A stretch of 64,000 bases of DNA from Vulcanimicrobiota bacterium (GCA_963714015.1 OY970223.1:2048001-2112000), one strand, 5' to 3'; counted from the stretch's first letter, positions 18,401-48,111 are shown. The notes: generated from the sequence alone by a model not told the origin. Translations and numbers: made by a program.

Positions 18401-19272
18401 TCATCGTCGTCGACGAGGTCGGCGAGCAGCACGAGTACGACATTCCGCACGGCACGCATTTAGCCGTGCACGAAGGCGACAAAGTGCAGCCGGGCGATCA
18501 GCTCAACGAAGGATCGCTCAATCCGCACGACGTGCTGCGCATCAAGGGCGAGACTGCGCTCCAGAACTACCTGGTTCAGGAAGTGCAGAAGGTCTACCGC
18601 TCGCAGGGCGTCGACATCAACGACAAGCACATCGAAGTGATCGTGCGTTCGATGATGCGCAAGGTGAAGATCCGCGACGGCGGCGACACGCAAATGCTGC
18701 CGGGGCAGCTCGTCGAAGCGGCGCACTTCAACGAACAGAACGAGCGTCTAAACAGCGATCAGCAGCACGCGCAGGCCGACCCGGTGCTGCTGGGCGTGAC
18801 CAAAGCCTCACTTGCGACCGAGTCGTTCCTCTCGGCAGCGTCGTTCCAAGAGACGACGCGCGTGCTGACCGACGCGGCAATCAAGGGCAAACACGATCCG
18901 CTGCTGGGTCTGAAAGAGAATGTCATCATCGGCAAACTCATTCCGGCCGGCACGGGCATGTCGCGCTATCGCAACCTGCAGATCCAGCCCGAAGGGCAGG
19001 ATTTGGACGACGAGGGCCGTCCGCGCAACGCGTTCGAGGCATCGCTGTACGAAGGCATGTCGGCCGACGATGCGGCGCTCTCGGAGATCATGGGCGCGAA
19101 CGGCGACGGCATGCAGAAACTGGTCAGCGCATACGACCGCACGCGCGAACCGGCGACCGTGCAATACGAAGGCGAGTACGAAGATCACCTCAACGTACAC
19201 GCCGCCCCTCGCAAAACCCAATACGATCGCAACGCCGGCTTAGCGAAGGGGATTAATCCGGAAGACCTGTAG
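15441..19272 (+). CDS. rpoC: RNA polymerase beta' subunit (one extra base at about 17655, probable sequencing error)
   Basis: [80 protein letters not shown]. Confidence 0.98.
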
Positions 19273-19293
19273 CGCCAGCTACGGGCGAGGAAA

Positions 19294-19331
19294 GGAATGA
19301 GCCGCGGTTTGCACCGCGGCTCTTCCGTTTT
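19294..19331 (+). terminator. Intrinsic terminator after rpoC
   Basis: GAGCCGCGGT-TTGC-ACCGCGGCTC followed by TTCCGTTTT. Confidence 0.8.
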
Positions 19332-19400
19332 AACGGCTCAAACCTCAGGGCCCCACTCGTGTCTGAGCTTCGAGCAGCGATGGTTCGCCGGGCGAGGACT

Positions 19401-20017
19401 CTACCAATAGGCGGGATTGATCTTTCCAAAGCCGCCGTCGTACTGGGTGGCATTGTCACCGTAGAATAGAATGCCGGCCGAGTCGATCGTCATCGTATCG
19501 GGATCTGCGTAGGTATACTTGTGAGGAAGAATGGGCCACTCGACGACTGTGCCGTTCGGCGACACGCGTCCGACGGATTGCGTTACCGAATCTCCGTAGT
19601 AGAGATTGCCGGACGCGTCCATCGCGCAACCGGCCGCAGTGGCGTAGTCTACACCGAGATTGGCAGGGTACGATGCGACGTACTGCCCATCCGTGTTGAA
19701 CGTTACAATGGAAGGCGCGGACAGCCCGGGCGGCATGATCGACCAAAAATTGCCGTCTTTTCCGACGCAGAAATCGCCCGCACCCTGGGGCAGCTGCGGA
19801 ATGGAGTATGCGGTAACCCCTCCAGCAGTCGTCACTTTTGCGACCTCGTAGCCGTCTGCGATCCACAAATTGCGATCGGGACCTACTACTATCGTTGTGG
19901 GCGGATATAAGTCGGGAAGATGGTAGAACGCCATGGTGCCGTCCTGCGTAACGCGGCCAACGTTTGAGTAGCCGGTTTCGCCCGTGTTGTTCGTGAACCA
20001 AACGGGTGCGTCGTCTC
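19401..20017 (-). pseudogene. 3' fragment of a Vgb-like propeller gene
   Basis: VWFTN, GPDRNLW and GKDGNFW repeats; no signal peptide or 5' part. Confidence 0.7.
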
Positions 20018-20018
20018 C

Positions 20019-20282
20019 GTGAAAAAATATACGGCGTCGCCGGTTCCAAACGTGTGGGACGTGTTCTCCGATCAGAACGGCGTTTGGGTCGCCGACTACA
20101 ACTACGGGGTTGTTCGAATCGCTCCGGACGGAACGGTAGCAGAATTCCCAACGTTCGCCGCTAATTCGGTTCCGGAAAGTGTGACCACAAACGCCGGCAA
20201 CCTGTATTTCGCCGACACGATTTCCGAGGGCTCCGAAAACTATGTCGGCGGCTTCGGATCGGTGCTCGAATCGAACTGGTAG
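20019..20282 (+). pseudogene. 3' fragment of a second Vgb-like propeller gene
   Basis: GVWVADY...GVVRIAPDGTVAEF...GNLYFAD; about two blades only. Confidence 0.65.
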
Positions 20283-20303
20283 AGCTCCGCCGAGGGCCAG
20301 TGT

Positions 20304-45683: not shown

Positions 45684-45887
45684 CAGGCCTCGGCTCCTGA
45701 AGATTCTTGCGCGCCGCAGAATTGATGTTGAGATCATTCAGCGACATGGGAAACGCGGCAAGTTGTGATCGAAGCGCGTGAGCTTTACCGCACTGCGGGG
45801 AGGGGCCTCGATAAAAATCGCTATGAGCCCGTCGGGTCTCCGAGCCGTGCCAAGCCTCTGGCGCCACGATGCGCTAGGATTTGCCCG

Positions 45888-46613
45888 TGACGTGGCTCAT
45901 TATCGCCCTTATCCTCTGGTTCGGCGGCAAGCTTCTCCTCAAGGCGACTGGCGCAGACAAGCCATACTTCCTTTGCCGCAAGTGCGTACGAATTACGCAT
46001 GGAAGCAGCAGTTGCAAGTACTGCGCCGACGCTGTTTCGCTGGTTGAGCAAGACGACCATCTCCACGTGCGCCTCGATTTTGAGTTTTCCGGTGAACGAA
46101 TCAAAATCGTTCAAACACTGGAGATGCTCTCGGCCGAGCTGAAGTGCATTGCGGATGCTTCCGAACTACCCCGGCCTGCGCCGGTTCGCGCAGTAGCCAC
46201 GCCCGATGTGAGGCAAGCACTGCTGCCGCTGATTGCGCAGCTTCTCGGGCCGGCTGGCTACCGTTTTCGAGCAGGCGCAGCAACGGTTCGAGCAATCAAG
46301 CTCGGCGACGGGATCCCCCCAAATGTTCTGCGATGCGTATCGGTATCTCTTGGGGCAGATCGTCGATGCAGAACGAGCGTTTGCGGCGGTCAATATTCCG
46401 CCGAACCTATACGCGACCGCCAAGGCTTTTCATGGTGTTCTTCAGTCAATCCGTGGGCAGCTTGCCGCATGGCCGGCGTCATTGGCGGCAGATGCCGGCG
46501 CGGTCAGGGGACAGGAGTACCATGGAGTTCTGGCCGTATCGTGCGACGTCAGCGCGTTCTATCGCGCATTAAGCGGCGAAGTTGAAATATGCCAGGCGTT
46601 GCGCACGCGATGA
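45888..46613 (+). CDS. Membrane-anchored CxxC-CxxC hypothetical protein (indel about 46240)
   Basis: N-terminal TM, CRKC...CKYC; continues in a second frame. Confidence 0.4.
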
Positions 46614-46622
46614 AGTAGCGTT

Positions 46623-46928
46623 CTAGACGCCGGTTGTTTCTCGCAGAGGTTGAATTTCACGTTCGATTTGTTTACGTAGAGTGTTCTTGGCGGAGTCCAA
46701 ATCATAACGCGTTTGGAGCGATAGCCAAATTTCCGGTCCGGTTCCAAAAAAGCGGCTCAGCCGTAGCGCCGTGTCCAGCGTAATCCCGCGCTCACCCTTG
46801 AGGATTGCTCCGACGCGCGTTGCGGGAACGTGAATTTTCATCGCTAGGGCATTGGCGCTCAACTCGAGCGGCATTAGAAAGTCTTCAGAGAGGAGCTCCC
46901 CGGGATGGACGGGGCCAAATGTTTTCAT
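46623..46928 (-). CDS. higA: HigA antitoxin
   Basis: PVHPGELL...GERGITLDTALRLSRFFGT...WLSLQ. Confidence 0.92.
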   Translation of the reverse strand: MKTFGPVHPGELLSEDFLMPLELSANALAMKIHVPATRVGAILKGERGITLDTALRLSRFFGTGPEIWLSLQTRYDLDSAKNTLRKQIEREIQPLRETTGV

Positions 46929-46972
46929 TATGTGTGCGGTTTCCAGCTAGTTCTAAAGACAACAAAGTCACA

Positions 46973-47140
46973 TCAATGATAGTCAACAATGGTCACGTTG
47001 TAAGCGTCGCCATCCCTCCAAACGAAGCCAATGCGATACGTTTGGTTGATCCGAATCGAGTGTTGTCCAGCTCGATCCCCGGAAAGCTTCTCGAGCTGTA
47101 GGCCAGGGCCTCGCAAAGCGTGCAGCGATGTAATTTCATT
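46973..47140 (-). pseudogene. higB: 5'-truncated HigB toxin (absent from the ORF track)
   Basis: NEITSLHALRGPGLQLEKLSGDRAGQHSIRINQTYRIGFVWRDGDAYNVTIVDYH*; begins at the WYL stop codon. Confidence 0.85.
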
Positions 47141-48111
47141 CAGAGAACAGCGTGTTCGTCGTAAAGTCCGACTAAGGCATCCGCGATGCCTCGGGCGCAG
47201 TCAACGGCCTCCGCCGGCGCGACGACCTTGGCATCGATGCCGAAGCCGAGCGCCCAACGCACGACCTCGCCGACGTCGCCGACGATGAATGTCATCGTTG
47301 CCGATCCGTCCGCGTGCGTGTCGATCTCTTGAGCGCGCTGCCATTGGCGTGAGGTTGCCGAAGGGGCGAGCGCGGGCGAAATCCATACGGAAACGCGATG
47401 CTTCTGCGTACCCTGAATAAAACCGAGCACGTCGTCGTTCTGATAGTGCGCAGGGATCGGCTGCGGCGAGAACGAGCCCGCCCGTTTGACGGGCGGTGCG
47501 ATGCTATCGAGCGCGTAGTACTTCCAGTTTCGGGCGGCAGGATCCCGGGCCAGCAGATAGTAGCGGCCGGAGCGTACAATCGCGCACCCCGGCTCGACGC
47601 GCCGCTCTTTGCCCGAGTAGCGAAACGTCACGCGGGCGTTGTTGGCCCAGGCGGACTGCAGTTCGTCAAAGATCTGCGCCACGCGGCTGCCTTGGAGCAG
47701 CGCCGGTTGTAGAAAGCGCAAGAAGCGGCGATCGTCGCGCGACTCTTCGCCTTCAATAGATTGGAGCTGCGCCTGCACCGGCGGTCCCAGGGCACGGCCG
47801 ATGTCCCGAATCAGCGAGCGCAGCGCGCGGCTGCTCTTGTCCAGCGCGGTCGGCCGGCGATCGAAGTCCAAGAGGCGGACGACATCGTGTTCGCTCTTTT
47901 CGGCGATGCGGAAGCCGGCGCGCTCGCCGATCGCGCGCAATTCCTGCAGATCGCGTAAGATGGTGCGCTCCGATGCCTCGTACTCCTCGCACATGCGGCT
48001 CAGACGCACGAACTTGTTGCGCACCAGTTCGAGCAGAATACGGATCTTGCGTTCCGTCGCACCGCTGGGCTCCCCGGACTGACGGCCTTTGCCGCTAATC
48101 GCTTTGGGCAT
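47140..48111 (-). CDS. HTH-WYL-WCX transcriptional regulator (PafBC/BrxR-like architecture)
   Basis: SERTILRDLQEL HTH; RRVEP...GRYYL...YALD WYL; VRWALGFG..AKVVAP WCX. Confidence 0.9.
   Translation of the reverse strand: MPKAISGKGRQSGEPSGATERKIRILLELVRNKFVRLSRMCEEYEASERTILRDLQELRAIGERAGFRIAEKSEHDVVRLLDFDRRPTALDKSSRALRSLIRDIGRALGPPVQAQLQSIEGEESRDDRRFLRFLQPALLQGSRVAQIFDELQSAWANNARVTFRYSGKERRVEPGCAIVRSGRYYLLARDPAARNWKYYALDSIAPPVKRAGSFSPQPIPAHYQNDDVLGFIQGTQKHRVSVWISPALAPSATSRQWQRAQEIDTHADGSATMTFIVGDVGEVVRWALGFGIDAKVVAPAEAVDCARGIADALVGLYDEHAVL

Follow-up and report, generated by a model that had tools for sequence, protein, structure and literature searches.

The stretch of DNA analysed here (hereafter the window; 64,000 nt, bases 2048001-2112000 of the closed 3.56-Mb contig G000:C1 of a Vulcanimicrobiota bacterium, GCA_963714015.1) carries two convergent conserved genes, rpoC on the + strand and a gene for a WYL-domain regulator on the - strand (47143-48111), and between them accessory DNA in which a piece of each flanking gene is found a second time. 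This interval is best read as a recombination hotspot, bounded by rpoC on the left and by WYL together with a nuclease-helicase gene on the right, and no single mobile island; accessory DNA has at least three entry points in it. It holds one well-documented displacement, in which the native 3' end of the WYL gene lies stranded in its ancestral place, and one rpoC fragment that admits more than one mechanism. The whole is tentatively read as a variable hotspot that took up its DNA through homology-anchored recombination combined with illegitimate recombination, that is, by displacement of gene 3' ends, a reading that falls just short of being probable. A BLASTN comparison of the window with itself yields five repeat pairs, three of which are NHL/beta-propeller paralogues at 42-46 kb, the other two, far beyond chance, being the rpoC and WYL remnants.

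An original prediction, made from the sequence alone, had described a single ~28-kb island that begins at 18525 and is layered from both ends. Its statement that rpoC and WYL both point inward agrees in coordinates and strands; position 18525, on the other hand, lies inside rpoC, which ends at 19272, and the accessory DNA falls into three variable segments (19.3-28.9 kb, 36.1-47.1 kb and, as the third, 32.7-35.3 kb) separated by conserved genes. The features in the middle of the interval are as follows.

28898-32678, - strand: conserved RecB-like nuclease plus SF1 helicase (TM0106 type), in three pieces
32679-35338: third variable segment, ~2.6 kb, G+C 53-58%
33780-34610, + strand: double winged-helix protein, inside the third variable segment
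35339-35842, + strand: conserved small open reading frame (ORF), convergent with WYL in relatives

The nuclease-helicase gene is the key to this architecture. In a genome of the same genus (G001) and in G007 and G009 it forms open frames of ~1150-1190 codons adjoining WYL, at a distance of 0.8-1.7 kb in the latter two, and it adjoins WYL in the metagenome locus L068 too; in G011, in G008 and in G017, a genome of a different genus, it lies downstream of rpoC and convergent with it. Being kept near rpoC or WYL in relatives, it is therefore not cargo. The gap between rpoC and the helicase measures 0.9 kb in G011, 1.3 kb in G008, 8.5 kb in G017, 9.6 kb in the genome under study (G000) and 36 kb in G007, and its gene content differs in each, so that constant core flanks enclose unrelated content across relatives, as they do in a hotspot. 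The comparison of the rpoC-WYL interval in relatives, which the original prediction had proposed as a check, thus bears out the variable filling but not WYL as the gene facing rpoC, a place that belongs to the helicase; rpoC and WYL are 40 kb apart in G007 and on separate contigs in G001 and G009. Where G000 has the third variable segment, L068 and G001 have a gap of about 0.1-0.7 kb. The helicase of G000 is broken by an in-frame stop (31139-31141, a leucine in the aligned G001 protein) and by a frameshift near 31920-31966, marks of either a real pseudogene or an assembly error.

The displaced end of the WYL gene

The evidence for displacement comes from two copies of the WYL gene end, the ORF beside one of them and the genes at the two ends of the insert.

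47143-48111, - strand: working WYL-domain regulator, full length, with helix-turn-helix (HTH), WYL and WCX domains; includes the repeat copy 47240-47302
35845-36096, - strand: displaced native WYL 3' end; last ~50 codons firm, weak homology to about 36108; WCX domain E 1e-4
36032-36331, + strand: higB-like gene of the left higBA pair (phrog_3066 E 9e-5, a weak match)
36331-36654, + strand: higA of the left higBA pair (TIGR02607 95.7 bits, cut-off 47.7)
46626-46928, - strand: higA of the second higBA (TIGR02607 102.8 bits)
46976-47200, - strand: 5'-truncated higB of the second higBA (phrog_3066 E 3e-17, profile positions 27-92 of 94); its homology begins at the WYL stop

The two copies are direct repeats (35924-35986 against 47240-47302; 81% over 63 nt, E 2e-9, 12 mismatches, longest identical run 10 nt in the self-BLASTN), and a protein-level search matches WYL residues 264-299 to 36003-35899 (61%, E 3e-8). 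Orthologues (identity 76% in G001, 69% in G009 and 65% in G007) align as far as 47161-47170 of the working gene, which is therefore full length. The remnant abuts the small conserved ORF (59% identity to the G001 ORF, 45% to that of L068) just as the WYL stop does in G001 and L068, and is thus the native gene end in its ancestral place; in these two relatives WYL, the convergent small ORF and the nuclease-helicase stand contiguous as a trio, and in G001 the open frame of the small ORF ends 3 nt from that of WYL. With a native end in place and a full-length working gene beyond it, it follows that the added DNA amounts to ~11.1 kb and a second version of the last ~80 WYL codons. The same-orientation WYL 3' remnant that had been predicted ~11.3 kb inside is in this way confirmed by self-BLASTN, by the protein match and by its ancestral neighbour. 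In a second metagenome locus, L070 (403-978, on a short contig), the WYL end and the conserved ORF next to it are about 465 bases further apart than in L068, a difference that may be another small insertion at the WYL/ORF spot.

Over 104 nt the two WYL copies are 72% alike, the distance that separates orthologues from different genera, and they are therefore no recent duplicates. Over the last ~47 aligned residues, which are few sites, the remnant shares 28 of 47 with the same-genus WYL and 20 of 47 with the working copy; the working copy itself matches G001 at 211 of 269 residues and then at 31 of 48 in its last part (78% falling to 65%), and G009 at 187 of 269 and then 30 of 48. The motif W[AT]FGFGADA occurs in the remnant and the same-genus WYL only, that is, in two of eight sequences. 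This discordance lends weak support, over ~48 residues, to the different history of the 3' end that had been predicted; the same comparison gives no shift for rpoC.

The two ends of the insert are unlike each other. At the inner (left) end an intact higBA, preceded by an inverted repeat, abuts the WYL remnant. At the outer end a higB without its first ~26 residues is joined directly to the WYL stop; this is an illegitimate join, not the terminus of an element. The original prediction had placed a higBA at the WYL remnant, half a higB from the WYL stop onwards and a hipBA at the rpoC remnant, and all three positions agree.

We infer that a segment of ~11.1 kb entered here, bringing a substitute for the last ~80 WYL codons, and left the native end stranded in place. 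The likeliest route would be RecA-type pairing at one end, within the conserved gene or further out, with an illegitimate join at the other; equally, a Campbell-type crossover could have taken in a circular piece carrying the gene end, and neither would need an integrase borne by the element. The idea that incoming DNA supplies a new 3' end and displaces the old one therefore fits the WYL side, where the remnant sits at the relatives' WYL stop, the working gene is full length and no recombinase is present.

An internal piece of rpoC

At the other side of the interval the duplicated sequence comes from within the gene, and a block of some 3 kb stands between the two copies.

15441-19272, + strand: rpoC, as two overlapping ORFs (15441-17780 and 17665-19272); Pfam Rpb1 domains 1-5
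18840-18958, + strand: source copy of the rpoC repeat, in the working gene (residues 392-435 of the second ORF, conserved ...GKLIPAGTG region)
19404-19934, - strand: fragment of a Vgb-lyase/NHL-type beta-propeller gene, 177 aa (profile positions 91-238 of 290; E 1e-12, 47.9 bits against a Pfam cut-off of 50)
20307-21898, - strand: hipBA pair (hipA 20307-21569; HTH antitoxin hipB 21569-21898)
22022-22140, + strand: internal-fragment copy of rpoC, with sharp edges on both sides

The copy at 22022-22140 is a direct repeat of 18840-18958 (self-BLASTN: 95.8% over 119 nt, E 5e-49, 5 mismatches, longest identical run 49 nt), and at the protein level residues 392-435 of the second rpoC ORF match 22020-22151 (86%, E 1e-17). 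A same-orientation 3' remnant of rpoC had been predicted ~3.2 kb inside; the same-strand copy is there, but it is an internal piece that ends 314 nt short of the stop and not a 3' end. The native tail of the working gene (18959-19272; 314 nt, 100 residues) is conserved in relatives, with DNA homology that reaches the stop. Since the copy is 95.8% identical to its own rpoC and 80.5-88.8% identical to the rpoC of eight relatives, it derives from this lineage. Two of the five differences are changes in the working gene, the copy still agreeing with G002 and G007 there; at the other three the copy alone has changed, and both copies have therefore evolved since the event.

The hipBA pair ends 123 nt before the rpoC copy and is recognised by three Pfam families, all above cut-off (HipA_C 147 bits, Couple_hipA 44.7 bits, HTH_3 32.8 bits); its closest homologues are 70% and 69% identical, and at E of at most 1e-80 hipA homologues occur in 47 of 385 genomes, the best at 70% identity. 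The 3.2-kb block made of the beta-propeller fragment and hipBA would be set apart from older cargo by the 119-nt rpoC piece and its two illegitimate joins. This piece could be the rest of a longer duplicated rpoC end, cut later at 22140/22141 by an insertion or deletion from the helicase side; alternatively it could be a patch copied in during the repair of a break. A displaced old end is thus unproven at rpoC, where the original prediction had assumed one: the duplicated piece lacks the gene end and the 3' and 5' parts of rpoC are not discordant. As laid out, a crossover between the two copies, across their 49-nt identical run, would delete hipBA along with the native 100-residue tail of rpoC, so that loss of the block by this path would damage an essential gene.

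The rpoC gene itself is split in the assembly. In relatives it is a single frame of 1201-1307 aa, to which residues 1-535 of the second ORF correspond; the one-base frameshift (window 17640-17700) is due to a single extra base near 17655-17668, and contigs of a public read run have one base fewer at 17655 than the window. Similarly, rpoB (G000:C1:2035253-2039237) is split into frames of 933 and 421 codons and has an internal TGA. Because both genes are essential, these lesions are probably assembly errors; and because essential genes are broken in this assembly, broken genes of the interval are indistinguishable from sequencing errors and the "decay" of its genes is untrustworthy; pseudogene calls throughout this genome become doubtful with it. 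The rpoB and rpoC genes are adjacent in most bacteria. Here ~24 kb separate them (G000:C1:2039237-2063441, which includes window positions 1-15440), with antiporter-like, peptidase and beta-propeller genes in the gap, and the distance is ~53, ~59 and ~71 kb in G001, G007 and G116, respectively. Among the papers listed by a broad literature search on separate rpoB and rpoC genes in Eremiobacterota, none was relevant.

Gene-end duplicates elsewhere and rival routes of entry

A local self-comparison of the whole G000 genome was used to find same-orientation duplicates of gene ends. Three more of these flank inserts without recombinase genes: one of flgG (G000:C1:307368-308677; 59 nt, 98%), with a 1.25-kb insert that carries a membrane ORF and an HTH_26 regulator, one of a lipoprotein-like gene (1171707-1173065; 183 nt, 94%), with a 1.0-kb insert, and one of the ORF 3035799-3036413 (3036376-3038543; 48 nt, 92%), with a 2.1-kb insert. 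In G017 a copy of the end of a WYL-family gene (locus L050, G017:C1 12658-15025; 273 nt, 89.7%) lies 2.1 kb downstream of the gene, beyond a 1.8-kb insert with two ORFs (304 and 131 aa) that have no Pfam match; the duplicated part starts at about residue 236 there and at about residue 265 in G000, and the join position is thus not fixed. These four duplicates (flgG, lipoprotein, 3035799 and the G017 WYL) run past the stop codon and end 0-45 nt beyond it. Tandem 3'-end copies without any cargo are found at 799434-800036 and 1029453-1030256. At the flgG and lipoprotein sites DNA homology with five relatives stops at the stop codon, these relatives being too distant to show an empty site.

Several results weigh against displacement by homology-anchored and illegitimate recombination. 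At rpoC the copy stops short of the gene end and the native tail is not duplicated, so that a single displacement cannot explain it and at least one further illegitimate event is needed; the identity of rpoC to relatives does not shift between its 3' and 5' parts (85.7% and 86.5% to G001, 83.6% and 86.8% to G002), in a comparison of low power; and among 31 genomes G000 alone has the second rpoC match (0 of 30 relatives), with no recurrent process to be seen at rpoC. Full-length doubles do occur: among the matches listed from a search of 385 class genomes, about two dozen genomes have at least two rpoC matches. The hipA gene stands beside rpoC in none of the three other genomes that have both on one contig, and at E of at most 1e-80 it was found in neither of the two same-genus genomes. 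(The tallies of rpoC, WYL, primase-polymerase and hipA across genomes take in genomes flagged unpublished, on which no individual claim depends.) At WYL the base of the 3' discordance is small. Homologous pairing within WYL itself, across copies that are ~72-81% identical and share no identical run of more than 10 nt, is unlikely, and the anchor would have to be sought further out, in a region of poor synteny with relatives. No donor-like arrangement was found, no read or contig among 152 public-run records bridges any junction, and a genome-wide count of gene-end copies gave seven downstream and five upstream, without clear bias, in a crude screen that missed flgG and WYL and carries no weight.

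It is rather unlikely that these are decayed site-specific integrative elements. In that case an integrase would have brought in each block at an attachment site within the 3' part of either rpoC or WYL, the copy on the element would have restored the gene, and the integrase gene would later have been lost or its product would act from elsewhere in the genome. Same-orientation repeats of the 3' part of a target, which leave the gene intact at one end and strand a copy at the other, are what integrative elements classically produce, and the WYL case conforms fully, with direct repeats that derive from the target gene and a restored target. The genome also holds repeat pairs at tRNA gene ends (G000:C1:1181214-1211069, Ala; 327636-340271, Val; 2946379-2947361, Asp; 3426231-3428789, Ser), which look like ordinary decayed integrative elements; the tRNA-Ala pair (1181214/1210982) spans 29.8 kb and lies next to a fragment of a tyrosine recombinase. 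However, none of the genome's six PF00589 matches and neither of its two PF00239 matches falls in the window, a Pfam scan of the 131 ORFs of at least 75 aa in 14.4-51.6 kb contains no site-specific recombinase, and the window has no tRNA gene; the statement of the original prediction that no tyrosine or serine recombinase or tRNA is visible is matched by these searches, and a transposase fragment of the IS3 family (27648-28451) is the one such gene present. An integrase acting in trans, which it had also proposed, is unlikely, as only one of the six PF00589 matches in the whole genome lies in an open frame of at least 300 aa. The 40-kb rpoC-WYL interval of G007 has no PF00589 match either. The WYL insert ends on the right in a 5'-cut higB fused to the WYL stop, which is no terminus of an element; identical runs in the WYL repeat do not exceed 10 nt, too short for a crossover core of that kind, the rpoC copy lacks the displaced tail expected of attR, and the WYL duplicate of G017 starts at another residue; nor does the primase-polymerase gene of the insert point to an element, with no tyrosine recombinase within 100 kb in five of five genomes, no phage relatives, and plasmid matches to the LigD domain only. 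The interval thus departs from an integrase-borne element on three points, namely the recombinase, the identical crossover core and the conserved position of the join.

A second rival, which we grant a minor chance, dispenses with the homologous anchor: local events such as Ku/LigD end joining with fill-in of staggered ends or patch copying, or tandem duplication followed by deletion, would leave as survivors those insertions that keep a gene intact, so that duplicates would cluster at gene ends. The rpoC piece, internal, short, near-identical to the resident gene and set between two illegitimate joins, suits a patch or an eroded duplication better than a displacement; Ku is encoded here and in one of 14 control genomes; the duplicates of flgG, the lipoprotein gene and 3035799 reach the stop or go slightly beyond it, as selection for intact genes would give; and cargo-free tandem 3'-end copies occur as well. 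A duplicated target should nevertheless begin identical, whereas the WYL copies are ~72% alike over 104 nt and the remnant has more in common with the same-genus gene than with the working one; and at rpoC the native tail stands behind the first copy instead of the second, a layout that a simple staggered cut cannot produce.

The one public read run found contains 0.07 of the sampled words (7%) and may be the source sample itself; it yields the 152 records just mentioned, fitted to 17000-36900, of which eight reach at least 99%. An apparent joint in this run, 18857>22045, was rejected as evidence of excision or of a circle, since it has 23 letters on one side and the record fits both rpoC copies. 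Errors of long-read metagenome assembly are a very improbable source of the repeats and junctions: the rpoC and rpoB lesions, the marker completeness of 89.6% for a closed contig and the lack of independent contigs across the junctions speak for them, but diverged repeats (95.8% and 81%) split by unique sequence would be an unusual artefact, pieces from inside the blocks (19818-19970, 20333-20579 and 22713-22965) recur in public-run contigs at 99-100% identity, and the WYL remnant has its expected native neighbour.

Displacement of gene ends has close counterparts among known systems. C-terminal displacement at rhs, contact-dependent inhibition (CDI) and type VI secretion system (T6SS) loci was reportedly treated by Jackson (2009) and Poole (2011), references given by Kirchberger and colleagues. 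The displacement model for T6SS effector-immunity/Rhs arrays, as set out in passages of their paper, proposes homology-facilitated illegitimate recombination: incoming DNA is anchored by a conserved upstream part and joined illegitimately at its far end (Kirchberger et al. 2017, PMC5361080). As in the present interval, these passages describe a conserved anchor, a new 3' part that arrives with cargo, an old 3' part shifted downstream in the same orientation and no known integrase, and repeated rounds that give arrays. There the displaced part is a toxin tip and the immunity gene is under selection, whereas the present interval involves a regulator gene and one for an RNA polymerase subunit, with toxin-antitoxin (TA), restriction and other cargo; and here one displaced end is clear, that of WYL, the rpoC piece being no gene end.

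The second counterpart is homology-facilitated illegitimate recombination, on which de Vries and Wackernagel (2002) and Prudhomme (2002) are reportedly cited. According to excerpts on it, the process is known in transformable bacteria and in E. coli conjugation (PMC3240628). It has in common with the present case one homologous and one illegitimate end, entry of foreign DNA by a conserved anchor and no recombinase; it is experimentally defined in these excerpts, and here it would be read from layout alone. TA islets without genes of mobile elements can, in the passages on them, spread by homologous recombination at flanking core genes (PMC13617665). They resemble the interval in having TA pairs in small variable spots between core genes without integrase or transposase, and differ in that the stranded copies of flanking gene ends seen here are not mentioned in those passages. 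Integrative islands in the 3' ends of tRNA or protein genes (attL/attR), for their part, share a same-orientation duplicate of the target 3' end at the far end of the insert and an intact gene; the interval differs from them in the absence of an integrase and of an identical crossover core, and in one insert end that is a truncated gene fused to the target stop. The interval would then be one more instance, at unusual genes, of an already known type of process, and no new mechanism. Overall, the original observation largely stands; its interpretation holds in spirit at WYL, is unproven at rpoC and gives way where it speaks of a single island.

Many hotspots and TA islets lack mobility genes, and entry of their DNA is usually deduced from conserved flanks alone. 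A native gene end stranded in its ancestral position is, by comparison, a direct footprint of the entry event, and with conspecific genomes it could separate exchange by homologous flanks, one-sided illegitimate recombination and integrase action. Searches of genome_contigs and metagenome_contigs based on WYL found no conspecific genome: the WYL protein as query gave one locus in the former, in a record labelled Candidatus Baltobacteraceae, and none in the latter, and a four-row WYL alignment gave three metagenome loci, L068 alone having useful flanks. The lineage is an uncultured soil bacterium, and an essential, highly conserved neighbour gene is the type of anchor that would allow transfer between diverged hosts.

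Whether this is a general process is a matter on which the gene-end duplicates are suggestive and not demonstrative. We put forward as doubtful, and with little confidence, that cassettes (TA, regulator or defence) generally enter Baltobacteraceae-type genomes without a recombinase at the final 50-270 nt of a gene, a stretch that is duplicated in the process. Circular pieces carrying a gene end could be integrated by a RecA-driven Campbell crossover, or pieces could be joined by Ku/LigD-type enzymes; the genome encodes ComEC, DprA and Ku, which make DNA uptake and end joining conceivable. Many bacteria that are not competent carry ComEC and DprA. If true, rpoC, rpoB, flgG and WYL regulators would be landing pads across species, with five duplicates here and one in another genus as footprints, and the 24-71 kb that split rpoB from rpoC in the Baltobacteraceae-type family would be the product of this route.

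Cargo of the variable segments

The G+C content of the window is about 60% and falls to 52-59% within 23-47 kb. Between the rpoC piece and the helicase lie the following.

22102-22383, + strand: small coiled-coil ORF
22407-22826, - strand: DUF805 membrane protein
22843-23484, - strand: beta-propeller protein, C-terminal ~160-aa fragment
about 23374-23466, + strand: Vsr fragment, on the strand opposite to the beta-propeller fragment
24286-24624, - strand: control protein of type II restriction-modification (PADLOC E 6e-10)
25055-26479, + strand: C5 cytosine methyltransferase (PF00145 194 bits; PADLOC MTase_II E 1e-88)
26492-27505, - strand: restriction enzyme (PADLOC REase_II E 8e-70)
27648-28451, - strand: IS3-family transposase fragment (NF033516 E 1e-19, below cut-off; rve positions 2-70 of 102)

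With methyltransferase and restriction enzyme genes side by side, 24286-27505 has the make-up of a type II restriction-modification system. The WYL-side insert holds, between its two higBA loci, a different set.

36899-37462, + strand: uracil-DNA glycosylase (UDG)-like ORF, a lead only
37960-38850, + strand: DUF7669 protein, a lead only
39023-40864, + strand: LigD-type primase-polymerase fusion
41086-41328, + strand: HicB-like protein
41517-45680, + strand: NHL/Vgb-lyase beta-propeller paralogues, in tandem
45881-46582, + strand: ORF of the WYL-side insert

TA pairs lie beside three of the three junctions, a count taken from this interval without a control; any stabilising of layers by them, as the original prediction had it, would be hypothetical. 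All are pairs predicted from sequence matches: hipBA and both higA genes score above family cut-offs and HigB is recognised by PHROG 3066 alone. The two higBA pairs were considered as recent inverted copies and rejected as such; at 38% and 35% identity they are distant paralogues.

Beta-propeller genes recur in the interval. Those at 41517-45680 have overlapping reading frames and internal repeats that are 71-75% alike and 2.1 kb apart; related fragments are found at 19404-19934 and at 22843-23484, and rpoC is flanked by complete genes of this kind in G001, where frames of 581 and 524 codons (stop to stop) downstream of rpoC match the latter fragment with residues 414-571 and 354-499.

The primase-polymerase family is present in 150 of 301 class genomes. 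At 12 other loci it has no neighbours in common apart from the gene itself, and no tyrosine recombinase was found within 100 kb of it in any of five genomes checked. It was rejected as the replicase of a mobile element: nine plasmid records match, each with at most 32% coverage and by the LigD polymerase domain only, and there are no phage matches. A repeat pair around the second primase-polymerase copy of the genome (3307407/3345652) was likewise rejected as a gene-end duplicate, its members being the ends of IS3-type transposase genes. Relatives of the gene lie directly downstream of rpoB in G116 (L030 14898-16832) and beside nusG-rplK-rplA in G058 (L034 15682-17652), in both cases again adjoining highly conserved genes.

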